Part shown: in pieces, positions 8,777-58,693 of the stretch
How positions within the stretch are numbered: position 1 is the first letter of the stretch
Layout: the number at the start of each line of letters is the position of its first letter
Source of the DNA: Girardia tigrina
Lineage: Eukaryota
Reading direction: 5' to 3'
Length of the DNA: 64,000 bases
Assembly (NCBI GenBank): GCA_001938485.1
Contig: MQRK01244224.1
Span: 21,310-85,309 of the forward strand
Program-made: the position numbers and the translations under genes
The notes under the pieces: model-generated
What the model was told of the DNA's origin: nothing
Databases searched by the model: none
What the model saw: only the letters and a program-made list of their open reading frames with translations

Positions 8777-9177
8777 TGGATTATAAAATTATCAAATTAA
8801 ATATCATTTTTTATATTCAATATTTTAAGTTATACTTGAATATTCGGTAAATACATAAAGTTCTAAGTTCTAGGACCTCGTAAAAAGCAATTACGTGTCA
8901 TGAATTTAGATGAGAGAGAGGGTCACATTTGGGAGACAAATCTTCATCTCAAAACATGGAATTCAATAATTTTTATTTAGTATTGATGAATATGTAATTC
9001 TATCCTTATTATATGGTCTCCATATTACGCATCAGAAACATGGTCACTTACTATTAAGTTTTGTGCTTTAAAAATATATTAAATAATAAAATTTACTTAT
9101 TTAAGGTACACTCATAGGTCATATCATATTAATTAATTTTTACAATAATTAAACGATAAAATAATATTCTCACTTAC

Positions 9178-9372
9178 CACAGCATAAATCATGACAATGA
9201 AACCAATATTGTATCCTGTGAAAGATATGGCCATCCCTATTATTACATATGTTTCCATATCCTTCGGTAACATATACTCTGAACGTTTAGCAAAATTTTC
9301 AATGACCACAATCAGGCCGTGCCATACACAAATAACGGTCAAAATAAACAGACTGGATATCACATATTTATC
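9178..9372 (-). CDS. Pentameric ligand-gated ion channel exon (M3, short loop, M4)
   Basis: Acceptor tattttag and donor gtaagt; 195 nt, phase 0/0: DKYVISSLFILTVICVWHGLIVVIENFAKRSEYMLPKDMETYVIIGMAISFTGYNIGFIVMIYAV. Joining to the previous exon gives the conserved SYLTYL-DKY. Confidence 0.9.
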
Positions 9373-12300
9373 CTAAAATAAAATAAATTGATATTTTTTG
9401 TGAATATATCAATTTGAATAGTAAAAAGTCAGATTTAATGCTCTTCAAGAGTTAAATTTTGAGCCTTTTTAGAAATACTTTGTATTATTTTACATTAAAA
9501 TTTTATGTGGGTCTCAAACAACTGTTTGATCTTTATTAAGAACACTAACATGATTGCAGGGACCGGTAGTAAATCTGCCAAACGATTTCCCCCCGTATTT
9601 CAAACATAAAATGTTCTCTTTTCTTTTTTTTAAATAAAAAGTCCTCTTCAGTGATTACAATCAAAAAAATTTTGACATAGTACTAACAAATAAAAAAAAT
9701 TAAATTTCTTTCTAAATTTAAGAAAACTGGATTTAAAAAAAATAAAAAATTCTTATTTTAGATAAGAATTCATAAAAGAATTTTATTGAAATAGTAGAAT
9801 ACAACACCATATCGAATCTCTAAACAATCTCCAGCAAATTTCTCTTCAATTATCAAATAACCACGATTTTCTATTTCAAATAACTTTTTTTGCCAGAAAT
9901 TTCGTTTTTTCATAGGGAAAATATTTGTGGAGACGTTTTAAGCATTTACCAACCTCTACACAATGATATAAGAAGTAAACTGGTCAGCTAATCCAGGGCA
10001 ACAATCCATACTGCACGCCACGACATTTTCTTCACACATCGCCATTTCTAATTATGACAAAGCTAACGAGAAATCTGAAACAAGGTCCAGGAACAATAAA
10101 TCTATCAAAAACCGAGCGACAACAGCAATACTGGTAGTACTGGTTAGTCCAATTATTTTCAATTTATATTGTGAATGGTTTAACATCATTCAATTGAATT
10201 TCTTTTTTTAATTTTAATTATAAATTTAGCTCATTATATTCTAACTCTTATTGGTTATATTTGACCACATTCTTGTTTTAAATCTCACATTTCCGGGGAA
10301 ACGATAGGTCGTAAACTTCACCACGAACATATCCCAAACTTCACGTTTCTAAAACCCCAATACCGGTTCATCAGCACAGTTATAATGTCACCAGCAGACT
10401 ACACGGGATACTACAGTGTTCGAAGTTCCTAGTCTCGCCTTATGAGCTCATCCGCAATACCAAAACGGTAATGGAGAAGGAACTTCGATGTCTATTATCG
10501 TTATCATGAGGCGTCAAACCACTCTGACCACACATGATCTGGTCCACATATGATATATAGACTTATGACCACATGAAAAAGTACATTGTACTCTACCTGA
10601 TGAAACGAAACCGAATCTTAAAACAGACGGAGAGAAAAATACTTTTTCTTTGCCGATAACATTATCACCGTACTTTGTGAACTCGAACAGATCATCCCAA
10701 TGCTAGTTGGATATCCTAGACCCAAAGGATCACAAACCATACCACTTGTCCTATCCCGCACTTTGCCTGTTACCTACCAGAATCATTCAATTCATCGAAA
10801 TAAAGTGGTGTCAATTGATTTAAACGAAAAACACTCCAGAGAACTAAAGAGAAAAACATTGGGATCATTTAAAATCTCTCTCAAAATCTCTCAATGATAT
10901 TTTGGAAACTTACTTCCAATCATCATCGCTAAGAAATTAAACACTTTTGGCATTGTTAACGAAAATCTCCACTGATTTACAAGCCATACATTCGGACATT
11001 GCGTAGGGATCAACAAACAAAGTTCTCAAATGTTTCTTCTTGTTTCTACTTTTGATACAAGCCGAACTAGCCAGTACTTCAATCACCGATCTCACATAAA
11101 TGACAAAGTACGCAGATAACAACAAAGAAACAAACTCAAATACCGCACGACCAGTTTTTGGTACCAACCGAATCAACTGCCAAATTTGCTGCATTAAAAA
11201 TGTAAATTTAAGTAATAATGACAAAATTAGACACTATAAGCCCCAGATGCCACAGTAAACTCCGTAATCGATTCCCAACCCCACTACATGCTGGTGTCAC
11301 AATAAATTTGGAGCAGACGGAAAAAATAAACACCAGTTATACATGGACGGATCTAAAATCCAAATGGAATATAAAAGACGTCTGCATCTATCACTCCCGA
11401 TAAGTTGACCAAGCAAAACACTGCGCACCAGATAAAATTCCTAAAACAATGTTTTGTATACGATGTAATTTTGGTTGTAATTCGTCTTTTGACAAAATAT
11501 AGAAGCAATGAATAATACAAATTTTGAAAAAAATGAAATTTTTATTTGAAATTTGTTTTAATAGGTATTTTTTGAAACATTTACATGTATTATTGAAAGC
11601 TTCTATTGTTGTTTCCGAATTTAAGTAAATTATTATTTGTATTTTGTTTTTTTATCTAAATTCAAAATTTTCCCTACTCTGCCCAAAGACTAGCTTTAAT
11701 TTAAATTTGAATCGTTTTAACATTTATCGAAGGAAATATCTCTGATTTTTGTATGTATATATGTATATGAATATGATAAATAATGATAAAGATAAATTAA
11801 AAAAATTAAATAGTTTAAATTAAGTTAAAAGAAAAGAAATAGAAATATAATAATTGAAAATTTAAAAATTAATCAATTTGAAATTCCGAACAAAGACATC
11901 GTATTATTGTAATTATTTTTATCAGAACTATGGTTGTCTTTGTTTCAGTTAGCGTTTGTGCTGCTTTGATTTCCGAGTGGAGAGAGATTGTGAGGCAATG
12001 AGTCGATTGGCCGGCTCGGATTTGTTAACTAATCAGAGTGAGCTTTGTCAGTTACAAGTGATTTGAAAATCACTTTTTATTATTGATTATATCTAATTGT
12101 TTGATTATTGTCGCTACTCGAACTTTTTGAATGAAATGAATTTGATATTTTCGATTTGAATTATTTTGCTCCGATTTTGATAATTATTTTTCGATTTTTG
12201 AAATTGTAACTAACCGAATTATTGTTGACAATTTAGTATTAATGAACAATCTGAATTATTTTTGACGATAAATTAACCATTTAAAAATAAAAAAATGAAG

Positions 12301-18944: not shown

Positions 18945-20320
18945 TTAACCCATTAACGCCGAACGAATTGAATGACTAATGCCTAACCCATCTGCAAGTT
19001 TTCTGATTGTTGTACGGGGATCTGTTTCCACCATTGTCCTCAAATTGTCGTTGTTCACAGCAACTAGACGACCACGACCTTCTTCATCTTCAAGGTTTTC
19101 ATCTCCATCAGAAAANNNNNNNNNNNNNNNNNNNNNNNNNNNNNNNNNNNNNNNNNNNNNNNNNNNNNNNNNNNNNNNNNNNNNNNNNNNNNNNNNNNNN
19201 NNNNNNNNNNNNNNNNNNNNNNNNNNNNNNNNNNNNNNNNNNNNNNNNNNNNNNNNNNNNNNNNNNNNNNNNNNNNNNNNNNNNNNNNNNNNNNNNNNNN
19301 NNNNNNNNNNNNNNNNNNNNNNNNNNNNNNNNNNNNNNNNNNNNNNNNNNNNNNNNNNNNNNNNNNNNNNNNNNNNNNNNNNNNNNNNNNNNNNNNNNNN
19401 NNNNNNNNNNNNNNNNNNNNNNNNNNNNNNNNNNNNNNNNNNNNNNNNNNNNNNNNNNNNNNNNNNNNNNNNNNNNNNNNNNNNNNNNNNNNNNNNNNNN
19501 NNNNNNNNNNNNNNNNNNNNNNNNNNNNNNNNNNNNNNNNNNNNNNNNNNNNNNNNNNNNNNNNNNNNNNNNNNNNNNNNNNNNNNNNNNNNNNNNNNNN
19601 NNNNNNNNNNNNNNNNNNNNNNNNNNNNNNNNNNNNNNNNNNNNNNNNNNNNNNNNNNNNNNNNNNNNNNNNNNNNNNNNNNNNNNNNNNNNNNNNNNNN
19701 NNNNNNNNNNNNNNNNNNNNNNNNNNNNNNNNNNNNNNNNNNNNNNNNNNNNNNNNNNNNNNNNNNNNNNNNNNNNNNNNNNNNNNNNNNNNNNNNNNNN
19801 NNNNNNNNNNNNNNNNNNNNNNNNNNNNNNNNNNNNNNNNNNNNNNNNNNNNNNNNNNNNNNNNNNNNNNNNNNNNNNNNNNNNNNNNNNNNNNNNNNNN
19901 NNNNNNNNNNNNNNNNNNNNNNNNNNNNNNNNNNNNNNNNNNNNNNNNNNNNNNNNNNNNNNNNNNNNNNNNNNNNNNNNNNNNNNNNNNNNNNATTTCT
20001 GGATCTAAATTTTTTAAACCAGTTTTGGCATTGGCGTTCTGTCAACACATCTTCTCCATACACTTCGCATAATTTTCTTCTTGCTTGTACAGCATTTTTA
20101 CCTTTTCGGAAGTTAAAAAGTAATACGTGCCGTAAATGCTGATTCTTGCTTTCCACCTTTGATATCAAATATAAATGCTTTTAATTATTCCAAAATTTTC
20201 CAAATCTAATCTTGATTACCAATAAATAATATAGTCAATGATAATTAATGATTATTAATATAAAAAAATGCATTTAAAACAAGTATAAAAAAACAAAATG
20301 ACTTTCCGCACAACCCAATA
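18945..20320 (-). mobile_element. Mariner element 5' part, spanning an assembly gap
   Basis: HLRHVLLFNFRKGKNAVQARRKLCEVYGEDVLTERQCQNWFKKFRS and GDENLEDEEGRGR; TIR ttgggttgtgcggaaagtcattttg with TA at 20319-20320. Confidence 0.85.
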
Positions 20321-21033: not shown

Positions 21034-24000
21034 TCTCCCTAGATTCGGAAGAATCTAACTCATACAATGTGACATAATTACAGAATCTCCTTGGAGGTCA
21101 GCGCTCACGAACGATCGATTCCGTTTAATCTTGTTGTGAAGAATCGCTCAGATCCGAAACACTCAATTGAAATCGCGGTCTTAGATCTGCAATATGGCGC
21201 AACGAGTCAACATTCCTTATGGTTACTAAGAATTTGATTGGATTTATTATCACCTTGATAACTCCTTTACCAATTTTTTGTTGCATTGCTGGGCCTGATT
21301 TGGTTTCACCCATACTTTATCTCCCTCTTTGAACTTGGCTAAAAATTTATCTTCGCCAATATGATCTGTTGAGTTAACGACCAACTTCAACCGAGGTTTA
21401 TATCTGTAAAGAATTTCGGCTGCGGGCCTATCGCTTTTTCCTGGAGCATTATTCATCCAATACACAGTTTCTTGGATTCCATTCCCTGCTCTTGCGGCTA
21501 ACGCTTTGATGGTTCGATGACTCCTTTCGATTATTCCATTACCATTCGATCTACTTACAGCACGGCATATGACATTGATGCTCCACGCCTTCATCTCCGA
21601 TTTAAAGGCTTCAGGATGGAAAGACGAATAATTGTCCACCAACNACTCGTTAGGAGGTCCACGATCATAGAAAATATTTCTTAAGTTCTTAATGACTTCA
21701 GAAGCTCCCTCGTCCCTAATTTTTCTCCACATTGCAAACCTTGATGGTCAACAATAATAATCAATGATTGTAAGATATTTGGACTCTTCAAACTTCTACA
21801 CATCGATGGCAATTCTTCTTCAAATTTCATCGACTTCAAGATTCCTCTTTTCCATCAGACCGGTGCCGGATCAATGGATTGACAATGATTATACTGAAGG
21901 ATGTTTGCTGAATATCTTTTTCACTGACATTGATGTTGAACTCCTTCGCCTAATAAATCAATTGCTGTAGTTCCATATGCGTTCCGTCGTGAATTTCCTT
22001 AAATTTTTCGATGTCCGATTTTAGTAGAGCTGATACAACATTATCGATTTATCGGAAACCATTTTTGAGGAATTATCGTGAGAATATCTGCATTATTCAT
22101 CTCAGACCTGACGTAGACCACACAAAATTTTAAATTATATTCATTCACGAGATCTTTTAGCAGGTTAAATCTTCTACGGATTAATAACTCTGGATCAGCC
22201 TTAATCTTGTTTTTTTAAGTATTTTCAATTACATTCCATATCCAACCACATACTACTTGACTATCGAGTCTCAGCTCAATATCGGAAAAACCCCAAGCGA
22301 TTGCTAAATTTAACTCTTTTATGGCCGCTTCTAGCTCTACTAAATTAATATGCCTACAGTCATAAACTTTTCGGAGCCTTGAAACGTCCTTAATTCTTTA
22401 ACCATCAACATCTAAACGGACTCCTAGTGCCAATGAACTGGCATTACACCAGACGGTGGCTCTATTTTTATTCTTCACAGACCAAATTCCTTTCGCACAA
22501 TCATTTACCTTTATCCTTTCCACTATGTCCACGATCTCTTTCTTCAACTCGTCATGTATCTGACGGTCTCAGTTTCCGTTAGATTGCCGTTTAAGATACG
22601 AATTTGTAATTCTTAACCAACCACAGACGGGGTGGATACCAATGACTTGACCACAAAAGGAATACAGATCTCGTCTTGTTTTGACGTCTTCATGATTTAA
22701 ATTTAATCTATGTGCCTGCCTCCAATAAAACACACCGCGATCGTCTCCGTACACTTCTAGACCTAATACTCTGACTGATTTTTCTTGCTGAAATTTTTCA
22801 GGATCTTTCGAAACTAAGCCAAATTTCAGTAAATGCTCCCCATGCTCTCTACTGATACTTTACTTTCATCCACGAATATATCATCAATATAAACATCAGC
22901 GGCTTTATTAATATCAGGATCCATGGACAATACTTTCTCCACTATTTTCGTCAAAACCGTTGGTCCAACGTTTAAACCAAAATCCATTCTGTTGAACGCA
23001 TATCTCTTATGTTTATACAACACCGTTTGATACGGTAACATTTAGTCTTCTACGAACACTTGCATATATGCGTCCTTCAAATCCAACATTGGTCAATTGT
23101 CGGACTTTTTCTCCACTTTCGCAGCTTCTCATCATGGGCCGCACTATTTACACTATACACATCTACGTACTTATTGATATTTCTGAAATCGAAAACAGGT
23201 TGAACTTTATCTTTATTTGTTTGAACTTGGTCTGTATAAGAAAGTTTTATTGTTAATTTTTTAATTTTCGAAAATAAGAACTTCGTTTTCTTGGGAATAG
23301 TACACTTAGGGCGCCCAAATTTACATTTGTCATACGAAATTAAAAATCCCTTTCGATAAACTGTTTTATAACTTCTTCGAATTTGACCTTTGATGATGGA
23401 CTGACATTGTAGTAATCACAACGATAATCAAATTTGGGTTCTTCTATCGACCATTTCCATCTCAATATCCAACACTTGTCATATAACACCTCAAATTTCT
23501 TCTCTGTTATTTTCATACACTCGACTTGTTTTTCATCGACAACATCCGCTGCGGTTCAATTCACTTTCTCACAGCCGAAAACGGCCTCTTTATCAATTTT
23601 CACATCTCCAAACTTCTGAATCACATCTAGACGAATAAAAGCTTTATAACCCGACAACATTTTATTAACAATCAAACCTGTCGTAGAACATTTTTCATCA
23701 CCAATAATAACTTCCAAATCGGCTTCCAGAGTTCCAAATCTACTACCATCCATCATAGTTATCGTCCTATCAAATTTCGACGGCTTTCCGACGACAATAT
23801 TTCTGCATGCACCGGAATCGATTACAGCTTCAACTTTACGGCCATTAATGATAAGAGACCTAGTAATTAATTTTAATTCAGGAGTACATGCGGCTTCTAC
23901 TGCGAAGTACTCCCATCTTCGTTTTCCGAATGACAATTCTTAGCCGAATGACCATAACCCTTGCATGCTTTGCCTCTTAACCAGTTTCTACACTCGTTGA

Positions 24001-24409
24001 CAAAATGACCTTGCTGCAAACATCTAAAATACGTTACGTTAGACTTATGTGACGATCGTGGAGAATTTTTATGACGATTCTCTTCCACCGTTCTAAAATC
24101 ACCGTTGTTTGATTTAAAAGGGGTGACAATCAGATCGACGATAACGCCGAGCAAAAAGTTCTCAAAATTAACAGTGTTGAGTGGTTTGACGACCAGTTTA
24201 TTCGACAATGATAAACGTAAAATTTCAAATGTAATTCAAATAATATAATCAAATTGATAAAATTTCGTTTTGGGACGATCCTTACGCAATAATTGAGAAC
24301 CGGCTACAATCTCGAATTTTGTTTTCTATTCTTTGATCGAAAGCGACTTTCCGTCAAATTTTGGAATCACCACTAACAGCGTTTTAACGTACATTTAGTC
24401 CGGATAGCT

Positions 24410-30660: not shown

Positions 30661-32296
30661 ATTATTTTCCTGCATTCTTTTTCAAAATTAAATTTACAAA
30701 GAAAATATAAATACAGGTATAAAGTTTACTACAAAAAATACATAACATTTTGTTTTGACGAAATTTTCATGTTTTAGAACTGTACACTCCACGATAACAT
30801 GATTTATATAATTATTATTTTAAATGTCATAAGCCGTATTATAATATTAATGAGATAAAGAGATAAAGATTCTTAATGCATATTTAATAATTATAATATA
30901 TTTCGTGTTTATCATGGAATCTCATTAATAACCTGAAATAGAACTTCTATTTTATAAACATAATTGGAAAAAAATATTATACATTAATTTAACTTAACTT
31001 TAAAAAAATAAAAATTAAATGAAAATATCCACTGAAAACAGAAAAGATGAGAAACCGATATTCTTCTTCAGTTGAAAATAGATTCCGCGATCCGTCGGAG
31101 GCAGCCGAGAATGAGCCTCTGCCAAACATAACTCTTTCATTTCCGCTGACAAACGCCCTCAATCGATGTTTATTATTTCCTGTAACTCTCAAGAACATAA
31201 ATCTCAACTTCTGGAACTATTATTTCTTTATTATTTTATAAATTGAACTTAATTTATTTTCTTATTTAAAGATGTTTTCTCAATTATGAGAGAAATCTTT
31301 TTATTTTGATGTTTTTAAATTATTTATTTCATGAATTTTTATTATTCGTGGAGGAATTTTTTAGACTAAATAAATTACTATTTTTTATAAATATCTCAGA
31401 GACTATTATTAAAATTTTACTAATGCAATTTGTACAATGTTTACCAATTTTAAATATAAAACTAAGATATTATAATCGTTCCACAATAATAATAATATTA
31501 ATAATAATAATAATAATAGTATTAATATTAATAATAATGTCAGGTTAAATGTATAAGTAATTATAATATTATGATTATGAAGGGTTAATTTAAATTCGCA
31601 TTTCGCCAAAATAATTTATTATTATTTTAATTTAAAAGTTAAAAAAAGCAAATAAATACAAAAGTTTAAAATTAAAAATAAAAATATTTTTATGTTAATA
31701 TGTTTATTAAATATCTTAAAATTAAAAATGATAAGAAAGTCATTAAAGAAAGATTAAATACATATTTATAAATAAAAATATTTTTACAGTTATAACAATT
31801 GATATATTTTAATCGAAGTTATGAAACAATTTCAAATAAATTTCAAAATAAATTTTCAGTTTTCATGTTAAAATTATTTTATAAATTTAAAGTTTTAAAA
31901 TTTGCGAAATTTTAAAAATTGAATCAAAAAAAATTTAATAGATTAATTTTTGGCGAGATAATTGAATTAACAAAAAAACTTTGCTTAAATATATGAATTG
32001 TTGGTATTATTAAAATTTTGATGTTAAATTATGAGTCTTGATTTTAGTGATAATGAAAGTGGTATAAGAGCTACTTACAATGATAATTGAAGAATAACTA
32101 AATGTAAACTTTCAAGCTTTTGAAAATAAAAATAGCAAATGAAAGTTGACACTTTTGCCTCTAATTAGTTCGGAGTACCCGATCGTTATTTTCGGATAAC
32201 ATTATATAATTGTTTATAATAAACTTTGTATTTTTTTAAATATTAATTTAGACAATATTTTACTGATATCCTCCATGAAATATAAAATAAACTCAC

Positions 32297-32452
32297 CAAA
32301 TAAGTAAGATATGAAATCTTTGGGAGACATTGATTGACAACAAATTTGAAGGCCACTAAGGTTAAAACCAACGTAAACGTTAGTTGTAAACGATTTTGAG
32401 GAAGGCTTTTTTCAACTGCAAAGGTAACCAAAGATAGCGAACAAATTAAAAA
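32297..32452 (-). CDS. Pentameric ligand-gated ion channel exon (end of M1, M2, M2-M3 loop)
   Basis: Acceptor ttttttag and donor gtgagt; 156 nt, phase 0/0: FLICSLSLVTFAVEKSLPQNRLQLTFTLVLTLVAFKFVVNQCLPKISYLTYL. M2 has R0' and L9', followed by the LPKISY motif. Confidence 0.93.
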
Positions 32453-32559
32453 CTAAAAAAAATACTATGATTAAGTATAAATAAATATATATAATTGAAT
32501 ATGTTAATAAACAGAATATATAAAACTGATCAAAATTGCAAACGAAAAATCGTAAGTAA

Positions 32560-32990
32560 GCTTCAGTAAAATAATTTGTTAAACTGGTTTCTTAATACAA
32601 ATCTACGATTAATAATGCTTTTAATGGTATACTTTCAATAAGTTTTAACTGGACGGAAACCGCATCTCCATATTAAACTTTTTTTGGTCGACATCATCTA
32701 AACTCGTGTGCAAACAATACGTCGAATTATCACTCCGAAAGCCTTTTACTTTCTCAGAAATAATGTCATTTTGAAGGATTTATACCGAAACCCCCTTTTA
32801 CCAAATTCATTAGATGTAAAGACAATTTTGTCGCCATTTTTTGTAAAATCAATTCCTAAATCAGCAATCTTTTTTTTACTTAATAGAGCTTGATTCGGCC
32901 GAGTGTAACGAGATTTATTATTACTGTTTTTAATTTCTTTTAAATCGATTCTTCGTACCAGTTCTATAACCATAACTTTCGCTAACTTTT
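32560..32990 (-). mobile_element. Possible decayed non-LTR reverse transcriptase fragment
   Basis: KNGDK...IIRRIVCTR...WRCGFRPVKT resembles KKGD...II..RL...QxGFRxxRST of RTE/CR1-type RTs. Confidence 0.35.
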
Positions 32991-33199
32991 TTTTATAAAC
33001 ATCCGGTAATGCATTTCTCTTTTGAATTATTTAACCTGGTGGCACCTATCACATCTCTAGGTAAATAGAAAACAATAAAAGCATCTTTTATAATATTGAA
33101 ATTGATTGTTCAAAAGTAAAATGAGCCCAATTGATATGTGTTATTGAACCTTTCAATATATTTTTTGATGTAAGAAGCCAAAAAAAATATATAAATTTA

Positions 33200-33550
33200 G
33201 ACGAGGTGCGTTCAAAAAGTACCTTATCAATGAAAACGAATTTTAAATTATAACACAAAACAACCATCCAGCTCCTTCAATTGTGGCCTCCAAAATGCTA
33301 GTTGTGCGCACTGGCGCATTGTTGGAGAGAAACCAAAGTCGCGTGTTGTTCTGCTTCATATTTTTTCTGGCGATTGCTACGATTTGGCTGTAATAGGCAG
33401 CGTTAATGTTGATGACTTTATCCGTGAAATCCACGAGAATAACATTTTTAAGATCTCAGAAAACGGAAAGAAACATTGCGCGCCTATTGCTTGTTTCTGT
33501 TTGCGTCTTTAAAGACGTCTTCTCTCCAGACAGTTTTTACTCTGCTGACT
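33200..33550 (-). mobile_element. Mariner 3' half (internally deleted), split from its 5' half
   Basis: TIR acgaggtgcgttcaaaaagt and DFTDKVININAAYY..NNAPVRT; nucleotide homology to about 46600-46855. Confidence 0.75.
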
Positions 33551-33670
33551 AATGCTTCAAACAAATAATGTTTCAAACAAATAAATATTGAATCGGATTT
33601 CATTCTGAAGTAGGGGAAAAATAAGCATTCGACATCAATCGATAATTGACCCCTCCTGGAGGTGTTACCC

Positions 33671-33989
33671 GTTTACATGGTAACGGTTACCATAGCAACG
33701 GCTCCGGTTACCTTTGCAACGGTTTCAGTTATCTTAGCAACGGTTCGGGTTCACTTGGCAAAGTACTTGGCAACGCTTTTGATTGGTTCCCGGCACCCTA
33801 GCAACGTTTCCGATTGCCATGGAAACGATTCTGATTGGTTCCTTAGCCTAGGCAACAATGGTTTCAGTTTCCTTAGCAACGGTAACTAAGGGACCGTTTT
33901 CATTAGCAACGAATACAGTAATTCAAGGCGGTTATAAACATGGTAACGGTAACCGTATCCATAGCAACCGTGACCTCTTTCTTAGCAAC
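33671..33989. repeat. Array of about 14 RFX X-box-like motifs with two inverted CCAAT boxes
   Basis: Examples: GTTACCATAGCAAC (33686), GTTACCTTTGCAAC (33707), GTTATCTTAGCAAC (33728), GTTTCCTTAGCAAC (33867), GTATCCATAGCAAC (33955); GATTGG at 33781 and 33833. Confidence 0.8.
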
Positions 33990-34466
33990 CGTAGAAGAAA
34001 GTGCTAATGGATCGCTGCACAGTGCCCAAATGTGCTAATCAATACTGCATATTTTTAATGTGTTAGCACAGTGCTTTTCAAGCTGCACATGTGCAAAAGT
34101 GCAAAAATCAATACATAAAAATTTTTAAAAGTGCTAGTGTCAAAAATCAATATCATGTGTTTGATGCACATTTTGATTCTTTATCTGAATTTGCAATTTG
34201 AATTCTCGTATATTGATAAACTTTTCCTATAATTAACAAGATGTGCAAAATTACACAAAAAACACATCGATTTAAGAGGTACAAGGAAGCAGAATATCAA
34301 AAAAGTGCTCATGCACTTGAATAGGAACCCATATATGTACCTTCAGATGCCATGTCAACATTTTCGAAAAAGTGCTGAAATATTGATTTATTCGAACATT
34401 TCTGAAATTCTCAAAANNNNNNNNNNNNNNNNNNNNNNNNNNNNNNNNNNNNNNNNNNNNNNNNNN

Positions 34467-34507
<41 letters not shown>

Positions 34508-34599
34508 TTTTATATGTTATATTTTATAAATGATATATAATAAAAGTTGTTGTGGACAAGGCTTTGAATAAAGATATAACAATATATTTGAAACACAAC

Positions 34600-34942
34600 T
34601 TACATAGTTGTAAACGAAATATAGTGAAAAACACGTGTAACAAAATCCTTATATTTTAAATCTCTCAAACCTGATTTGAAGTAGTCTTTTTCAAAGAATT
34701 GATATTAATAGGCTCACCATAATCACATGTCACTGTTATAGATTGTATAGTAACATTAGTGATATTGTAAGGTAAAGTGGATAGATAGGTTGTTTACATC
34801 ACATTATTTGACATTTTCCATTGCGGAAGAATATGATGGTGTACTCCGGAAAGTGTAACACATATTTACACGGTTTAGTACCAAAATGGAGATCTTTCAG
34901 ACAATCGCCAGTAAATCCTTTATAATTGATATTACGCAGCAT
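34600..34942 (-). pseudogene. Small intronless TBP-like (TATA-binding protein fold) gene, decayed
   Basis: MLRNINYKG...TIIFFRNGKCQIM*CKQP../..NITNVTIQSITVTCDYGEPINI../..GLRDLKYKDFVTRVFHYI mirrors TBP ALIFSSGKMVCTGAK...FKIQNMVGSCDVKFPIRL. One TGA falls at the conserved Gly; frameshifts and an apparent internal deletion. Confidence 0.65.
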
Positions 34943-35162
34943 TTTTTGTTAAAAATGAATATCAATGTATTCATTTCAATTCAAATTCCTGCCTTTTGAC
35001 TATTTATTAAAAGTGATTCATTAAAACAAATTAATAACAAGTGTTTGTCTCCCAAAGATTTCATATCTTACTTATTTGTTTTATTATATTTAAAGTAATA
35101 AGTAATATTAATATAATAGTGTGTTTTGTTTTAATGCATCAAATAAAATAAATACAATAAAC

Positions 35163-35909
35163 ATGATGAGATATCGTAACATCCAGACATTTTGTCATTA
35201 TTTGAAAATCCGTTTGACAAATCAAGTTGCTCCTGCTAAAATGAAGTGGAAGTTTAAAACCTTCAATGAACTTAACCAGGTAACTGAAGAAAAGAAGATT
35301 GATGATGAGACAGTTAATGGACCTAACCAATTAACTGAAGAGATAAATGCTGATCAACCTAAGCTAGTCGAACCAGCCAGGCCAGTAGGGTGGCCTAGAC
35401 TAATCAAACTGCCCAGGTTAGTTGGGCAATCAATAGTAGTCCAGGCTAGCCTAGGCACTCAGACAACCAAGGATATTCAGGCGCCAATTACTGAAGCCCA
35501 GGTTAGTCAGGCTAACCAAGCTAGTTATTTTCAACCAAAACAAAGAGATGCTCCACAAAAATCTTCATCACTTTGGGTTTCTACATCAACAACATATAGA
35601 GGTTATCAGATTAACTTGTTGAAATATCCAAAATCAATTAAATTGAGAGATCCGGTATATGTTAGAAAGACCAAATTTAGCTCTCATGTAGAAGACATTA
35701 GTTATCGCAATTATGATATTTTGAATGTAGCCCTACAAGAAGTAGGAACAAGACCAGATGAAAAGCTGAGTGAACACCGAGAACAATTTTTTCGATCAGA
35801 TGATGGATTAAAATTCAGAGATTTTATGGACCATGAAAAACAACAATGGACTTTTCTCATTATACTATGGCATTTATCAAAATATGCATGCAAGGTAGAA
35901 AAGAAATAG
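35163..35909 (+). CDS. Orphan intronless ORF (248 aa from first ATG), probable Polinton accessory gene
   Basis: Longest gap-free ORF in the window, with a low-complexity Q/P/A/E middle. Lies between the TBP-like gene and pPolB; no recognisable motif. Confidence 0.5.
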   Translation: MMRYRNIQTFCHYLKIRLTNQVAPAKMKWKFKTFNELNQVTEEKKIDDETVNGPNQLTEEINADQPKLVEPARPVGWPRLIKLPRLVGQSIVVQASLGTQTTKDIQAPITEAQVSQANQASYFQPKQRDAPQKSSSLWVSTSTTYRGYQINLLKYPKSIKLRDPVYVRKTKFSSHVEDISYRNYDILNVALQEVGTRPDEKLSEHREQFFRSDDGLKFRDFMDHEKQQWTFLIILWHLSKYACKVEKK

Positions 35910-36334
35910 ATGGCGATAATTATCCAATATGAAAATTGTCAGAAATTTGTTGTATTTAATTGTTGATGTAAGTTGTATTGATGTGTTAATAAATATTTTA
36001 ATAATTTAGTCTTGATTTCATAACAAAAATAGGTTAATACATTTGTTAATATGGATTTAGAAACATAAATGAATTATCTATTAGATACATCAAAGCTGAA
36101 TTTAGAAATGAATGGATAAATGTTATACTTATTAATATTATCATCAAGAGTTGTACGTTAATAAATGTTTTCCATGTTATTTTCTGTAATGATTATTTAA
36201 TTTACCTATAATTGAATTAAAACTTAACAAGTCTTAATTTATTTTTTTAATTTTAATTTATTTTTTTAATTTAATTTTTAACAACATACAACATTTATTT
36301 ATTTACATATGTACAATACATACAAGTGGATCAT

Positions 36335-36823
36335 TCACAAGAAATAATGTCCGTGAGGTAGTGTACTTATCCCATCTGTCAAAATATGTCGTTTATCGTC
36401 AAACCAGTCCAGGCTTTTCTTCCGCATCATTACTGTAGAGACTTGATATTCTCTTGATTGAATCCTTCGCATTTCAGAAATTATATTGATTTGTTTCCGT
36501 AGCACTCTCATATAATCATGGAATCCGATTTGGTTTGCTAACGTTACCCCTTGAACTCCCTTGGCCCTCTTTTTGATCTTACCATCCACATCAATGTCAT
36601 ACATCTCAGACCGTAGTGTTACGAATCTAAAGATGATTTGACCATTGACTTCATCCTTAAACTTTCCAAGGACCTTTTTATTTGATGTTGAATAATTTTG
36701 ATGGTCCTTTGGACAGTCTGAAGTATCCATATGTTGAGTCATTTGAAAAAACTCCGCAAACATATCTTCTGTATGAATCTGATAGACAAAGCTATCAGTA
36801 TCCATATACATTAGCTGTAAATC
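36335..36823 (-). mobile_element. Protein-primed family B DNA polymerase C-terminus (Polinton/adintovirus-like)
   Basis: LMYMDTDSF, NKKVLGKFKDE, LRSEMY, KRAKGV and DDKRHIL..STLPHGHY are typical Polinton pPolB motifs; the 5' part is missing. Confidence 0.9.
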
Positions 36824-36839
36824 CTACTACATTCCAAGT

Positions 36840-37275
36840 AGTTTCAATCATTTTACCGGCCAAAAAGTGGGGTACGAATCTGTAGCACAGTTTTCTGATA
36901 ACCGTTGATTTCAATTTGGTTTGGGCTGTACAAACACTGATGTTGACATTCATTGACCGTATTTTCATGGTAATACGCAGGTTATCTTCGACTATCTTCT
37001 CCAATTTTCCATCAACTGTATCAAAATTTCTTGTGCCCGACATAATTTTTCTTCATCAAAAACAGAGCTGCTACATCCTTATTTGTAAATATAATGCACC
37101 CTATCGCCCTCGAAAGAAAACGTGTAAACCTAGCATCCGTGCCGCAAACCATATGTTCATTTTAAAAGCTTATTCCTTAGGTTTTATATATTATTAATGT
37201 ATGAAATTGACTTATTGGTTAAATGTATTGATCATTAATTTCCGAACAATTTATTTGGGTAACCTGTAACCACTT
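36840..37275 (-). mobile_element. Mariner 5' half, partner of 33200-33550
   Basis: KLEKIVEDNLRITMK..NISV..RKLCYRFVPHFL; nucleotide homology to about 46975-47170. Confidence 0.75.
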
Positions 37276-38182: not shown

Positions 38183-38809
38183 AATAGAAAACTTCTATAG
38201 TTAAATTATTCAAAATTCAGAATGTTTAATTCAAAAAAAATTGTTAAATTAATTTGACAATAAAAATCGAGAATAAAATTCGTTTCAAAATTAAAAAGTG
38301 ATTAAATGAAAGTTAATTAAAATCCGTTTATGACTGACGAAGTTCGCTCTGATTAGTTAACCAATCAGAGCGAGCTAATCGACTCAATTATATTGAATTA
38401 TTACAGCTTTTCATTTGAATCATCGATCAACTTTACATGAACAACGACTCTTTTTTCAGGTTTAATTAAAATCAATTAATGCTGAATAATTCTTTTTTAC
38501 TGCAGCAATTTTTTTCCTAAATTATTTTTAACTTAAATTTAAATTTTTAAATTTTTTAATTATTTTAATTATCTTTTACATTATTTATCATATTTATATA
38601 CACATAAAATGTAAGCAAAAAATTAAATAAAATACGAATTAGGTTTTCGAACAACAAATATGGAACATAATTGAATATTGAGATGGTCTTTGGGTAGGAG
38701 AGAAGAAGGACATTTGTATATAAATAATTATTTAAATAAATAAACAAATATTAATCTCAAATTCTGAAACACATAATTAATTAGTAAATCAAAAAAGTTT
38801 TTATATGCA

Positions 38810-44698: not shown

Positions 44699-45870
44699 TT
44701 GGGTTGGCCAAAAAAGTCATTGCGTTTTTTACTAAAATATTTATTATCAAAAATGATATGGATGCACAAATATTTTTACACGATATACTGTCCATTATTT
44801 TCAATCACTTTTTCCCACCTTTCCGGTATCTTTATTATTCCTGATTCATAAAAGCCTTTGCCTTTGTCAGCAAAAAAACCGTCTACGAACGATTTGATGT
44901 CATCATCACTGGCGAATGTTTTTTCTGTTTAAGGAATTCTGCAGTGATCTAAATAAGTGAAAATTCGATGGGGCCAAGTCTGGAGAATACGGTGGATGCG
45001 CAAAACCTCCCAACCCAGTGATAAGAGTTTCTGGCGAGTGGTCAAACTTGTATGCGGTCTTGCGTTATCATGCTGAATTACAACTCCTTTTCGATTTGCA
45101 AATTCTGGACGTTCCTGTTGAATTGAATGAGCCAATTTTTCCAGCTGACCACAATATTTGTCTGAATTGAAGGTTTCATTCCTCGGAAGGAGTTCAAAAA
45201 ACACAATTCCTTTAAAATCTCACCAGACGGAAAGCATAACCTTCTTTTGGTGAATTTCTGCTTTTGTGATTGTTTTGGCAGGCTCACCACGTTTTGTCCA
45301 TGATCTTCGGCGTTCCACATTGTTGTAAACAATCCATTTTTCGTCACCAGTAATCAAGCGCTTCAAAAATGGATCAATTTGTTCTCGCTTCAAAAGGGAA
45401 TTGTAAATATCTATACGTTTCACCAAATGAATTTCTTTCAGTTCATGTGGTAACCACATATCAATTTTACTGACGAATCCAAGTTTCTTTAAATGACTTC
45501 CAACACTTGATTCTGATATTTCCAGAGTCTCTGCAACTTCTCTTGTCGTCATATGTGGATTAGATTTGATCAGTGCTGTTATTTNNNNNNNNNNNNNNNN
45601 NNNNNNNNNNNNNNNNNNNNNNNNNNNNNNNNNNAAGAGTAGCTTCTGCCATGTCTACCAGCAAAAATAAAATTATGTAATTATAACACACAAAAAGATA
45701 TGGTGTCTATATTACGTGTTCTCAAATAGCTGCCGCACCCTGTATATATTAAAAAAATTAAATTAGTTTAAAAATATATAATTGAATTTAAATTTTATCA
45801 CATCGTTTTACATTTTCAAGCTTTTTATTAGGACGTACTCAAAAACGCAATGACGTTTTGGCCAACCCAA
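44699..45870 (-). mobile_element. Mariner (DD34D, cecropia-like) with both TIRs, frameshifted
   Basis: TIRs TTGGGTTGGCCAAAA..GTCATTGCGTTTTT with TA on both sides; WLPHEL, ITGDEKW, HDNARPH and HPPYSPDLAPS motifs. Confidence 0.93.
45635..45744. mobile_element. End of a Tc1-like element nested in the mariner
   Basis: tgccgcaccctgta is the reverse complement of TA-CAGGGTGCGGCA, a Tc1-type terminus. The sequence is unrelated to mariner coding; the remainder is in the N gap. Confidence 0.45.
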
Positions 45871-46309: not shown

Positions 46310-47324
46310 ATAGGGCCATTTTTATAATACAATAAGCTTAACGTATGTCGGCATTATTTTTTTAACATAATTTCCATTTCGCTTTACACACTTCTGCTAA
46401 CAAATAATCAACTTAGAAACGTCTTTTTAAAAAATTCTTTGGGGCATGCGGTGAAAAAATCCTCTACAGCAACCTACAAATCGTCATTGGATCAAAATTG
46501 TATGCCTATAAAACATTTTTTAGGAGTCTGAAGAGGTAAAAATCGTTCGGGACCAAATCTGAGCTGTACAGCAAAGGATTCACAAGCACTAATGCAGCAC
46601 ATTCAATTGTGGCCCGAGAAATGCCCACCGTGTGCACTGGCGCATAGTTGTTCTTCTGTTTCTATCTCTTCTTTTTAAGGTTGCCACGAGTTGTTTGTAA
46701 TAGGCAGCGTTGATAGTGAAGGCTTTATCAGCAAAATCCATGAGAATAAAATGTTTTCTATCACAGAAAAAGGAAAGCATCATCGCTCATCGATAACTTG
46801 TCCCCATTTGCATCTTCAAAATTGATTCTCCCAAGACAGTTTCCACTCTACTGACTCAAACTTTGTTTTCGTTAAATACATATTGAGTGGAATTTCATCT
46901 TCCGTTATTAAATTACAAGAAAGTTTTACCATGCTTGTCCCTCTGGTTCAATTTGTTTTGACTGCGACTCCGGAGCACTTTTTTCTGACACCCATGGATT
47001 TCAGTTTGGTGTACGCTGTACCAGCCCTGATGTTGAGCTTTATTGACAGCATTTTGATGGTAATTTGATGCTCTACTCGGACTGTCTTCTCCAATTTTTA
47101 ATCAAATATGTCAAAAAGGTTTTGTAGCTGACCTGATTTTTCTTGATCAAAAACAGAGGTGCGACCACCTTTAGCCTCTCATACCCAATATTTAATAGTT
47201 GTCAGAAATGGGAAGTTTTATAGGTAAGTTGATGGCAAACGATCTTAGATTTCAATCCATGTCTTCTTCTGCAACACAAAGACTTTACCTTAGGTCGGGT
47301 TACCTATTGAACGCACCACATGTA
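46310..47324 (-). mobile_element. Decayed mariner (same family as the split element at 33.2/37 kb)
   Basis: DFADKAFTINAAYY, YSSDLVPNDFYLFR and CVKRNGNYV; TIR-like tacatgtggtgcgttcaatag at the right end. Confidence 0.8.
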
Positions 47325-48369: not shown

Positions 48370-49753
48370 CTAATTTTGTATTGTTAAAAAAAAGAAATCT
48401 TAAACGATTTGTGGATTGCGAGCTAATCTGGTGTATAAATTTGATTGTCACGGGTGTAAAAACTCGTACATTGGAGAGTGAAGAAGACAGAAAGGAATCG
48501 GACGGAACTTATAGACATAAGGCTACCACATCCAATGGATATAATTGCATGTAAAAGACTCACGTTCCATTGAAAAATGGACTCCACAGAGACGAACATA
48601 CTTCAAAGACTGTGGAGAGCAACTATACCAATTGGAAAGAAGATCAGTGGAGGGAGCGAACAAATGATGAAGGAATATCTCAGTGTCGATGTGAAATGGC
48701 TATTCGGCGAAGATGCTGATTACAATGAATTTGTACAACCAATTATTCGCCGAGACCCCACCATTTCACAGAGCACATACATAGCTGGACTTATTAGGAA
48801 AAGAAGATCAGAAAGGACAGTAACAAATTTATCCAAACTCATCTGCCCGAGGGAGAAGATAATTCATTGTCCTATAGACGACTGCTTCAAAGAGTTTGCG
48901 GAAGTAAAGGAACTTAACAGGCACATGAAGATGGATCATATAGAGAGGGGTGATCAGGAAGAACCAGACTGAGCTAACAAGTTTAAATGCCACAAATGCA
49001 ACAAAGGTATAAGACAAGAAGATGGCTAATAAGACATTTGAATAAGAATCACAGAGTAGACATGAACACAGAGGAAGAAAATCAAATTAAACTAACAACA
49101 AGTGCAACAAATAAAGGAAGCAATACAACGGAAGCAGATACATCACAACATATATCAACTACCAATTCTCGGTTAGCGAAAGAACCTCCGACAATCTCAA
49201 TGGTGGTGGAGCAAACGATTAATCCCGAAGATACGCACTTGACTTTTAGGATCACTGACTCAACAGCGAGAAGAGAGTTGAAGTGCCCCTTTTGCGGCTG
49301 TGCTAAGTCCACTAACACAGCCAAAGGGATGCTCAATCATGGTACCACAGTACATGATTGGTTGGTTGTTGATTGTCACAGGTGTAAAACTCGTACATTG
49401 TTCCATTTTTCAATGGAACAGGGAAGCCAAAGAGATCTCGGAGACTGAAGCGATTCGACCCAGTAGGAGGCCTATCGGAGTAGCAACCACTGTTTAGTTT
49501 AGGTAGACCCTCTAAAGGGCCTAGTGGCTCAATACCATTCAAAAAGATGGGAAGCCCACATTGGAGAGACAAATCGTCATCTCAAAACGCGAATTAGTAA
49601 ACATTCTCACTCTAGTCGATCAAGTAAGGTTCTTGATAATTGATTACAATGTAAAAATCGAATCTCTTCTGTTTTAAAGGATGAGTTTTCTTCACACTAT
49701 GAGCGATAGTTCTGTGAATCATTTTTATACGACATACAACCCATTAATAAACA
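48370..49753 (+). mobile_element. Penelope GIY-YIG fragment interrupted by a 1.08-kb insertion
   Basis: LRANLVYKFDCHGCKNSYIGE (to 48478) resumes as IGETNRHLKTRI (from 49558); ACATTGGAGAG is duplicated at both junctions. Confidence 0.85.
48479..49557 (+). mobile_element. Rearranged 5' fragment of a C2H2 zinc-finger element (probably R2-superfamily non-LTR)
   Basis: Three C2H2-like fingers: CPIDDC..H..DH, CHKC..H..NH and CPFCGC..H..VH; one stop and one frameshift; flanked by an 11-bp TSD. Confidence 0.6.
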
Positions 49754-51867: not shown

Positions 51868-52285
51868 CTATGATGAGAAATGGATCCTGTATGATAACCG
51901 ACGTCGATCTGCACAGTGGTTGGACAAAGATGAAGTACCGAAACACTTTCCAAAACCGAAACTAACACCCCGTAAGGTTATGGTGANNNNNNNNNNNNNN
52001 NNNNNNNNNNNNNNNNNNNNNNNNNNNNNNNNNNNNTCCACTATAGTTTCTTGAATCCAGGTGAAACAATCACAGCGGAGAGGTACTGTCATGAAATTGA
52101 TGAAATGCATAAGAAATTGAAAACCCTTTGTCCGGGATTGGTCAATCAAAAAAGTACCATCCTTCTTCATGATAACGCTAGACCTCATATTTCAAAAGTG
52201 ACTCTTCAAAAGCTTAATGAGTTGGGCTATGAAACCCTGCTTCATCCACATTATTCACCAGACATCTCACCAACGGACTTTTGTT
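51868..52285 (+). mobile_element. Mariner transposase catalytic fragment (Hsmar1/cecropia-like)
   Basis: DEKWILYDNRRRSAQWLD, PGETITAERYC, LLHDNARPH and HPHYSPDISPTDF. Confidence 0.9.
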
Positions 52286-52539
52286 TCTGTGAATTTGCAC
52301 GTCTTTGAAGTTTGTGTCCTAAAACCGCCATTATTTTTCTACCAACCTTATATTACATTTTTAAAAATGTTTGTCACATTTTTAATGTTTAACTCTCTTC
52401 TCGGAGATTATTTTTATTATTCTTCTGATTTTTCTTAAAAACAAAGAAAATATTTTAATATTTTCTAATCCCATAAAGATAGGAAATAAAAACTCATTTG
52501 AAAATCGAGACTTATATGGGGAAATAAAAAGTGGAAAAA

Positions 52540-54981: not shown

Positions 54982-55526
54982 GAAAAATAAATTTAAAAAT
55001 GAATACTAAAATGAATTTTATTTTGATTTACTGAAGCAACAGCCTACTTGATTAGTTTTCTGTGATTTGGGAATTTATGTTGGAGTTATAGAGATTTAAA
55101 ATTAGTAATATTTTTCGCATTCAGTCCTTAAGAATATTTTTTTAGTTATTAAATTAATATATTTTAAATAAATCCATAGATTTTTAACAAATAACTTGGG
55201 TTTGCAATAATGGTATCACTGGTAATTTGAAAACTTAATTTCGGTAATACCGGTATTTGGCTGACATTAAATGGTACTACTTCCATTTGGGCTAAAGTAT
55301 CATTAAACCTAAAATAAGAATTCAAAAACGACATGGATTTTAAAATAAAAAATAAAGCACGAGCCACATAAACATTTTTTTCCGCTAATGACTTTATTTA
55401 AACGGTCCAAGAGACAATAGATGGTTTTGTTAAAGACATTAAAAAAATTTATTTTAAATATAATTTTTGAAAACTTAAAATTCTTTGGATATAACAATAA
55501 AAAGCAAAGAATGCAATAATACTTAC

Positions 55527-55684
55527 GGTAACCAAAAATATATTCCAAATAAAATATGCTGGTCGTCTGGCTGCTCGGCATTTGACTGAAATGGCTGGTT
55601 TGACCGAAGAGGGATCAGCGTATTCATAAGCAAGTTCTTTCTGTTCAGTTTCTATGTGCTTGAAGAGATACCATTCTTGTTCAT
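55527..55684 (-). CDS. Pentameric ligand-gated ion channel exon (end of extracellular domain and start of M1)
   Basis: Acceptor ttcaactttcag and donor gtaagt. 158 nt = 2 nt + 52 codons: (D)EQEWYLFKHIETEQKELAYEYADPSSVKPAISVKCRAARRPAYFIWNIFLVT. EW and the pre-M1 RRPxYFxWN are pLGIC hallmarks; ends in phase 0. Confidence 0.9.
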
Positions 55685-56479
55685 CTGAAAGTTGAAATAA
55701 AATATTTTTATTACTAATTTTTCCCTGGAAAATGATTTTAAAACTTAAGTGTAAATAATTAATAATATACTTTTATTCAGAAAAATATTAAATGCATTAA
55801 CGTCAAATATAATTATGCAAATTACTGTTTCCATCAAAACACATTAAATATTGATGCTAATGTTTTCATTTTTATTCGTTTTCATTTGGTTTTAAGTTAA
55901 TTTTAATATTTATTTATCCATCAATATCACCAATAAATTTTATATTTATAATTAATATAACAAGCTACAGTTAAATAAGAGTTGTAATGGTATAATTAAC
56001 GTTACACAATTTGAAAAACTCATTTAATATATCACGAACGCTTTTAAGGAAAACAGAAAGCCTTTTTCTATAAATTTTATTATTATATATCAGATTCGTC
56101 TGTAAAGGAAACGTCAGTAGTAACAATAGTTAAAAAGAAAACTATATCACAGTTAAATACATATGAAATATATATAAAGGATATAATACGTAAAATTATA
56201 TATAATATATAATATATTATATATTATATATTAATAAATTAAATTTTAAGTGTTTTGTTTTATATTAATTTTTGGATTATTATATTTAAGTACTATTCAG
56301 TTTTTAATTAATAAACAAATTGAGTCATGACTTTGTAGAAAACGATGATTTTTTTTATAAATGTAAATAATTTAATTATATATATATATATGTGTGTGTG
56401 TGTGTATTATACTTCAAACATTATAAGATCTTGTGAGGGTACAAAAAATCACAATATATTATTTATTTTCTTTATCTTG

Positions 56480-57100: not shown

Positions 57101-58067
57101 TTAAATTTACGAATCGATCGTAAATTTAATCGTAATTGAATCGATTCTATTAATTGAAGAACTCGTTTTACAGTTTGTATGGAATTGTAATTTACCTATA
57201 AATTTCGATTTTTCCAACTCGATGTACGATTAATTCTGTTCGATTAAAGTGTGGTTTCTTTCTTCAAATGATTCTTTGAAAATACCCATTAATTTTTATA
57301 ATTCCACTGAACTATTTCAACGATATAATTTAGAATTTATTTACAAATGTATTTTTTTAATTTTTTTTATGGAATTTGTAAATTGTTTGTTCTAAAAAAT
57401 GATTTTGTAAATTTTAAATAAGAAAGTTTCAAAAAATATATTAATAAAAATTGTAAATAATTCGAGTTGTTTATTCGAACTAAGGGAAGAAAGTGTAAAC
57501 ACACGAAATGAAAAGAGAAATAAATTGTAGATTGTTATTAAATAAAATTTCGATGAAAGCTTCTATTGAATAACTAAAATCAATTGGCGAAAATGAGTTC
57601 TTAGAAATTGTTTGTCTTTTGACAAAAAAACCGAGATATGGATGAAAATTATCCAAAATCGAGAATGGACGATTTTGGATGGCAACAACAGAAATCTTTT
57701 AAACACGGAAAATCGAACGGTGTTTCGGAATTTCGATCTCTCTTGATCACGACAGTCAATCGCGAAGTGATTGTTTTGGAGATAGAAATTTCGATCCAAG
57801 AGACGATAATGTGAGTTTTGATGCGCAAATGTTGTTAAGAATTGATAAATAAGTTATGATATTTGTTTATATATTTAGAATTGTAAATAAAGAATAAAGT
57901 TTTGTTTCTTTTTTTTTGATAGAAAAATGTATTATAATTTTTTTGTAATTTTGTGGGTTTTTTGTAAATTCTGGAAAATACTAAAATTCGGGTTTTTGTG
58001 TTGTTTAAATGGAATGTTGCATGGTAACGTGATGATTTTTGCTTTGATTTCGTGTCAGTTGTATTGA

Positions 58068-58693
58068 ATCAATAAACGTTGAATTTATTTTGAATTTGCA
58101 AATCTCTAAATTACTTAATTCATCGATAATTTTCTATTTTTTTACTGTGTCTCTTACAACGGTCGATTCCGAAATGATGCTCGTTCAAAAGCCGAGCAAC
58201 TCTGAAATCACAGAGAAATTAAAAATTCTCAATGACAAAGCTGAATCGGTGTTTCTGAAAAATACTCTCTTAACCGATGACGGTGTATTGAATAAGATTT
58301 TGACAGATTCGAATTACGAATCCGATACGAAATTGTTGTCAAATAAATTTGCNNNNNNNNNNNNNNNNNNNNNNNNNNNNNNNNNNNNNNNNNNNNNNNN
58401 NNAATCAATAAACGTTGAATTTATTTTGAATTTGCAAATCTCTAAATTACTTAATTCATCGATAATTTTCTATTTCTATTTTTTTACTGTGTCTCTTACA
58501 ACGGTCGATTCCGAATTGATGCTCGTTCAAAAGCCGAGCAACTCTGAAATCACAGAGAAATTAAAAATTCTCAATGACAAAGCTGAATCGGTGTTTCTGA
58601 AAAATACTCTCTTAACCGAGACGGTGTATTGAATAAGATTTTGACAGATTCGAATTACGAATCCGATACGAAATTGTTGTTAAATAAATTTGC
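58068..58693 (+). repeat. About 285-bp tandem duplication across a 50-N gap
   Basis: 58068-58352 and 58403-58693 are nearly identical and abut the gap. Confidence 0.8.

Follow-up and report, generated by a model that had tools for sequence, protein, structure and literature searches.

An array of X-box-like units in a probable Maverick/Polinton-type end fragment within an ion-channel gene intron of Girardia tigrina

The window, that is, the whole stretch of 64,000 nucleotides of Girardia tigrina DNA that was analysed, has a GC content of 28% and carries parts of a Cys-loop ion-channel gene on its minus strand. The exon of the M2 region lies at 32297-32452, and further channel exons were located at approximately 55506-55691 and at 9169-9399. 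These exons matched Cys-loop proteins of a monogenean and of tapeworms, up to 92%. An array of X-box-like units was found in a 23-kb intron of this gene, surrounded by decayed repeats; its first box is 1,219 bp away from the exon of the M2 region, and the upstream exon lies at a distance of 21.5 kb. An initial annotation of this DNA had placed the array about 1.2 kb from the M2 exon of an ion-channel gene, in agreement with these positions. The features of the region are as follows.

32297-32452, minus strand: host Cys-loop ion-channel exon (M2 region), a transmembrane exon
33201-33608, minus strand: left half of an older decayed repeat split by the inserted block (aligned part 33254-33603)
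33609-33663, plus strand: outer end of the inserted element, starting AGTAGGGG at 33609, or GGGG at 33613 after TA; contains no X-box
33671-33989, plus strand: array of 14 head-to-tail X-box-like units with a 21-bp base unit and irregular spacing; GATTGG at 33781 and 33833
33996-34416, plus strand: AAAGTGCT repeat module, the part with the highest copy number; it contains internal repeats, is arranged in tandem in other copies, and here abuts an assembly gap
34417-34500, no strand: gap of 50 N followed by an (AT)n run, between the module and the genes; the true gap length possibly differs from 50
34603-34942, minus strand: broken intronless TBP-like gene with a stop and frame shifts
35046-35078, plus strand: 33-bp exact inverted copy of the channel exon 3' end at 32297-32329 (E 2e-10)
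35112-35909, plus strand: open frame of 265 codons with five relatives, the best 75% identical
36335-36823, minus strand: last 162 residues (C-terminus) of a protein-primed DNA polymerase of family B (PolB), of the Polinton/adintovirus type and truncated on the upstream side near 36824
36825-37080, minus strand: right half of the older decayed repeat; the two halves are contiguous in a copy at 46581-47171

In a single uninterrupted copy of the older repeat, the segments to which the flanks 33254-33603 and 36825-37080 aligned adjoin each other (46581-46898 and 46906-47171), and everything between the flanks was therefore regarded as one inserted block or nest. This block extends from 33609 or 33613 to 36824, a length of 3.2 kb plus the assembly gap, and the array starts about 55 bp inside its outer end. 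A mariner-like label for the split older repeat was assigned by eye only; Pfam and tblastn gave no confirmation.

To examine other copies, the contigs of four runs, including the DNA runs X1 and X2, were aligned to 32200-34416 at 80% likeness. Contigs broke at 33638 in both X1 and X2, and in five X3 contigs the letters came loose before 33609, where the flanks were unlike (agreement 0.51). On these grounds, the left edge was taken to be a true end common to other copies; the outer end (33609-33663) was shared by other copies with different flanks. The first six letters at 33609, AGTAGG, agree in five of six positions with the Maverick end motif (AGT)2, and the true end may be 33613. The junction letters can also be read as a TA duplication within a palindromic AGTACT, with the element starting at 33613 and no net loss of target; the alignment at the right junction is gappy. 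No 6-bp target site duplication was present, since the flanks of the block do not repeat (a TA duplication or a small loss is seen instead). A second terminal repeat was not found in the window, where the inverted copy of the outer end was limited to the six letters CCTACT at 36823. The right edge of the block, at about 36824, falls inside the polymerase coding sequence.

The polymerase piece had matches to 92 of 238 candidates, among them a metagenome protein at 90% and an adintovirus PolB (42%, E 3e-31). Although truncated to 162 residues, this C-terminus is that of a Maverick/Polinton-type polymerase. The 265-codon frame converges on the PolB 3' end and had no Pfam or Atlas match. Pieces of the TBP-like gene were 62-87% identical to TBP-family proteins of 144-148 aa encoded on short contigs, and this gene is possibly an accessory transcription factor of the element family. 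The TBP-like relatives form clusters of four and 14 members on short contigs. Neither integrase, capsid, ATPase nor protease was detected among the window ORFs of at least 90 aa or the Pfam matches of 16 frames, and the block is a fragment.

The array contains 14 box-like 14-mers, starting at 33671, 33686, 33707, 33728, 33749, 33761, 33792, 33813, 33843, 33867, 33897, 33934, 33955 and 33976. Scoring used the sequence GTTNCCATRGYAAC, the RFX X-box consensus taken over from the initial annotation, a plain consensus rather than a motif-database PWM. The null model for box counts consisted of 1000 dinucleotide shuffles of 33660-33995. In this segment there were five matches with no more than one mismatch, seven with no more than two and 12 with no more than three, compared with shuffle maxima of 1, 2 and 3, respectively. 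None of the 1000 shuffles reached the observed counts, and the shuffle mean at three mismatches was 0.27. Likewise, 16 half-sites were counted against a shuffle mean of 1.16 and maximum of 6, and the next densest 340-bp stretch in the whole window contained three. The matches to this consensus are thus above chance in a scan against shuffled controls, a check that the initial annotation had proposed with a PWM.

All units share one orientation, and their two halves are unequally preserved. RGYAAC, the right half, was present without mismatch in 11 of the 14 units and the left half, GTTRCY, in only two; on the plus strand of the array GCAAC occurred 10 times and GTTGC not at all. The symmetric boxes at 33686 and 33813 are full palindromes of the RFX type. 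The description of the array as about 14 imperfect palindromes in 320 bp therefore stands as to the number of units and their likeness to the consensus, but most of them are poor palindromes. The claim of diverging spacers beside a kept GCAAC half-site was half right: the right half is well kept, but a G after AAC is also kept in 11 of the 14 units, so that the spacers are not free. Four copies at 33686, 33707, 33728 and 33749 are spaced by exactly 21 bp as reported, and both GATTGG motifs were found. The helical phasing claimed for the cluster as a whole did not hold up; spacings were 21 bp in six of 13 cases and 12-37 bp in the others, and the 10.5-bp phasing of all 14 boxes was not beyond that of random spacings (R=0.36, p=0.12), the 21-bp phasing being local. 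TRF called 33684-33761 a tandem repeat of period 21 with 3.2-3.7 copies. Among the four phased units, nine of 14 box columns were invariant compared with one of seven spacer columns, a difference (p=0.04) that is biased by how the units were found. There was no sign of a structured RNA or hairpin element: Rfam gave no match in 33200-35200, and single-strand folding was not beyond that of shuffles (z=-0.64). In its anatomy, the array is a minisatellite made from a box-like unit.

Abundance was estimated from the aligned contigs of the two DNA runs, in which exon depth was 81 and 29. Relative to the exon, the array had a depth of 3,197-30,842 times in X1 and 20,076-145,488 times in X2, and the AAAGTGCT module (at 34050-34123) reached 229,263 and 790,604 times. 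The terminal 55 bp, at 62 and 205 times the depth of the exon, were far rarer than either. Depth summed over contigs does not equal copy number, and floors were obtained by dividing it by the depth of the deepest near-unique contig and, to account for overlap, by 31. For the array, the floors in the two runs came to 38-363 and 171-1,237 copies, and for the module to 2,697 and 6,720. A single variant at 33807 was carried by 88 and 97 separate contigs, and the repeat was also present in runs under two other organism labels. It was covered by contigs of X3 and X4 as well, a coverage that does not bear on expression. Of the 148 joints, 15 were listed, and many of these omit or duplicate 10-182 bp of the array, which indicates that the number of units differs among copies. 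With head-to-tail units whose number varies among copies, and with a partial array in one metagenome locus (L035, below), the array is a minisatellite of the VNTR type. CCAAT boxes recurred within inserted stretches of other copies. The array is a very high-copy, length-variable repeat and not a locus-specific enhancer.

Independent copies were sought in metagenome data. The first search pattern returned no loci, and the module motif fetched 10, of which three contained the module and seven were dropped as chance matches without it. One of the three, L037, has the order and orientation of the window, with X-boxes, module, small ORF and PolB 3' end; its PolB is 71% identical to the window piece, and about 60 bp of the intervening region are common to both. 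At the position of the array, L037:1-290 contains a perfect, symmetric box and five half-sites (shuffle mean 0.48; 0 of 1000 shuffles), in a locus that had not been fetched by an X-box pattern. The same 290 bp aligned to the array weakly and about equally in both directions, with scores of 37 and 40 against shuffle maxima of 33 and 37. Between the X-boxes and the module, L037:140-290 is absent from the window and is perhaps a nested small element. The second locus, L035, consists of module, partial array and module in tandem. In the third, L030, the module gives way to tandem repeats of two different types (about 150 and 170 bp, L030:1-1470), and 1.5 kb of sequence contain no PolB. Each unit of these repeats carries one RFX-like half-site, a number not beyond chance (reached in 135 and 252 of 1000 shuffles).

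The array-module segment was thus linked to PolB in one of three metagenome copies, the other two lying on contigs of 1.3 and 2.0 kb. The tandem arrangement in L035 and the lack of PolB in L030 suggest that many copies may be satellite-like or non-autonomous. Box positions were kept no better than spacer positions in either comparison, with 37 of 69 against 33 of 71 for L037 (p=0.25) and 39 of 51 against 42 of 58 for L035 (p=0.40). The initial annotation had named motif positions no more conserved than spacers as a sign of a neutral minisatellite, and these two pairwise comparisons, made with few copies, showed no excess.

In the viral collection, the array junction, module and outer-end patterns each returned no loci, nor did the window PolB alone. 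A single-unit pattern returned 28 loci, none with more than three boxes in 340 bp, and a two-box pattern returned four, without array and without PolB. A PolB profile retrieved 35 other PolB-bearing viral loci, most of them without visible termini, and no X-box cluster was present in any; the best of these (L057) had seven half-sites in a coding-like repeat and no box at up to two mismatches. The X-box array is not general to Polintons. In prokaryote genomes, six loci were returned, four with pattern-length matches only and two with none.

Based on these data, the array is probably a minisatellite belonging to the non-coding terminal or subterminal part of an abundant flatworm element of the Maverick/Polinton type, a 3.2-kb end fragment of which lies in the channel-gene intron. 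This fragment would comprise the outer end, the X-box array, the AAAGTGCT module, the TBP-like gene, the 265-codon ORF and the PolB 3' end, and would have been inserted into the older repeat inside the intron. The array units may have originated, and may still be replaced, through slippage or unequal exchange of the 21-bp unit; the copy in the window would be a dead passenger without particular importance for the channel gene. What was observed directly comprises the array, its variable length and high copy number, the block boundaries and the link to PolB, the last in two copies (the window and L037). Because PolB is present with neither paired TIRs nor a 6-bp duplication at the locus, the block is described as a probable Maverick end fragment and not as a confirmed TIR. 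The proposal that the array is virus-derived is partly supported by its position in a block with a Polinton/adintovirus-type PolB and by the recurrence of that order in L037, but neither an integrase, a second terminal repeat nor a 6-bp duplication accompanies it.

An expansion of Mavericks has been reported in Dugesia (10.64898/2025.12.11.693146, section 2.4). Like the TIR region of a Maverick/Polinton (adintovirus), the fragment has a non-coding end beside accessory ORFs and a protein-primed PolB, and as with Mavericks most genomic copies are decayed. The accessible text of PMC8097293 gives (AGT)2 or (AG)3 as the end motif of vertebrate Mavericks and 46-1,447 bp as the range of TIR length. 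If read from 33609, the window element end starts with AG and agrees with five of six letters of (AGT)2; its size is within this range. In contrast to Mavericks, no second TIR, no 6-bp target site duplication and no core gene besides PolB were found for the window block, its end reads AGTAGG, and the TA-duplication reading is not Maverick-like. An X-box array is not mentioned for Mavericks in that part of PMC8097293 and is absent from all 35 other PolB loci.

Given its place close to one end of a highly abundant transposon, the array is most likely of use to the transposon family and not to the channel gene. Whether this use involves RFX is close to evenly balanced, and we lean slightly away from RFX binding being functional for the element family. 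An RFX factor exists, since a planarian Rfx orthologue has been reported, with its motif tied to cilia gene modules (PMC12660999). Host RFX, perhaps together with NF-Y at the two CCAAT boxes, would bind the units, and the bound array would provide the element with an enhancer or promoter in RFX-rich cells. The array is real and its origin is probably accounted for; going by its letters, it would work like a transposon-borne array of factor sites, with its function left as putative.

A quite plausible alternative, to which we give somewhat less than an even chance, is that the likeness to X-boxes is neutral. One box-like 21-mer would have been multiplied through slippage, and any binding of RFX would be without effect on element or host; this is compatible with either origin. 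The one-way orientation and lopsided halves, the tandem call by TRF, the freely varying unit number and the lack of excess box conservation in both between-copy comparisons are as expected for such a repeat. They are opposed by the invariant box columns in the four phased units (p=0.04, with the ascertainment bias given above), by the persistence of a perfect box and five half-sites in L037, within a stretch that is otherwise barely alignable, and by the recurring CCAAT boxes in inserted stretches of other copies. Were the likeness neutral, this would be no more than a common minisatellite within a decayed element.

For the origin, an unlikely alternative to the Maverick end fragment is that array and module form an element of their own, either a non-autonomous DNA transposon or a complex satellite, that targets TA, starts with GGGG at 33613 and captured Maverick pieces or repeatedly came to lie next to them. 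Such an element may still spread RFX sites. The junctions fit a TA duplication in AGTACT with no net target loss, the depth of the module is far above that of the outer end, module, array and module stand in tandem in L035, and two of the three metagenome copies are without PolB within the contig. However, no matching right end was found and the block stops inside PolB coding sequence. The module-ORF-PolB order is repeated in L037 with a PolB that is only 71% identical and with 60 bp of common intervening region, and the five X3 contigs turn loose at 33609, not 33611. The Maverick end fragment is the preferred origin.

It is improbable that a MYB-type protein reads the array instead of, or besides, RFX. 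Most units end in CAACGG, and 13 sites of the form YAACNG, taken as a MYB-type motif, lie in 33660-33995 over the best-kept half of the units. This count is not independent of the repeat, and the boxes at 33686 and 33813 and in L037 are full RFX-type palindromes. Least probable is a host-selected enhancer of the channel gene exapted from the insertion: the intronic position 1.2 kb from an exon, the left junction present in both DNA runs and the planarian Rfx motif in cilia gene promoters (PMC12660999) are in its favour, but there are hundreds to many thousands of similar copies, and decayed repeats lie all around. The suggestion that the array could influence the host channel gene gained no support, given the 23-kb intron and an upstream exon 21.5 kb away.

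Returning to the reading in which RFX binding serves the element family, the MHC class II X-Y module is a system in which RFX5 acts with NF-Y. The array resembles it in having X-box-like and CCAAT sites side by side, and differs in having no fixed single X-Y module or promoter context and 14 boxes to two CCAAT sites. RFX1 and RFX3 bind a site in the D-sequence of the AAV ITR, a viral terminal repeat, and raise expression, according to PMC5760533, which also mentions the HLA-DRA X-box. As in the AAV ITR, RFX-type sites are found here at the end of a virus-like element, RFX binding itself being only putative for the array. In the AAV ITR and at the EF-C sites of HBV and polyomavirus, binding has been demonstrated for individual sites, all of them in viruses of mammals, whereas the array consists of 14 tandem predicted units in an endogenous flatworm element. 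Caenorhabditis Helitrons carry and disperse tandem heat-shock elements (HSEs) for which binding and gene activation were demonstrated (PMC6927752). The likeness is that of a transposon bearing repeated host-factor sites, here predicted from sequence, and the differences are in the element class and the factor.

A wider proposal, which we regard as rather doubtful, is that flatworm Mavericks carry an evolved terminal RFX/NF-Y landing pad coupling transcription or protein-primed replication to RFX-rich (ciliated or germline) cells. Their expansion would have scattered many thousands of RFX sites, which would act as an RFX sink and supply material from which ciliary or neuronal enhancers could evolve. 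If true, an RFX array at Maverick ends would name a candidate host factor and cell type, and at such copy number it would bias RFX motif analyses in these genomes. It would also offer a route for rewiring ciliary genes, comparable to Helitron HSEs for heat shock in nematodes. In the largely open-access literature searched, no paper was found linking RFX sites to Mavericks or planarian repeats, including the accessible parts of PMC8097293, PMC10748475, PMC8502044, PMC6431247 and PMC11410931. The same literature held almost nothing on host factors used by animal Mavericks.

The 33-bp inverted exon copy at 35046-35078 lies 2.7 kb from the exon, between two divergent genes of the block, and its source segment ends at the splice donor. 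Pairing of the copy with the exon end in the pre-mRNA was predicted at -50.7 kcal/mol, and the copy could affect splicing or editing of the exon, but it is just as likely to be an insertion from templated repair or an artefact of the assembly. Among the 40 of 266 differences listed, no A-to-I change in the exon was seen.

Other repeats were noted in the window. Decayed frames resembling an LTR retrotransposon, with integrase, protease and zinc-knuckle-like parts recognized by eye, occupy 21250-24235 on the minus strand. Decayed mariner/Tc1-like transposase frames, also labelled by eye, are found in the channel-gene intron at 44929-45654, 18945-20180 and 51976-52308. Within another repeat, 38343-38380 is a short near-palindrome with facing CTGATT/AACCAATCAG CCAAT-like sites. 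A near-identical duplication at 58067-58619 flanks a gap of 50 N and is probably an assembly overlap. Two frames with weak zinc-finger matches at 48574-49448 on the plus strand are probably the front of a non-LTR retrotransposon.
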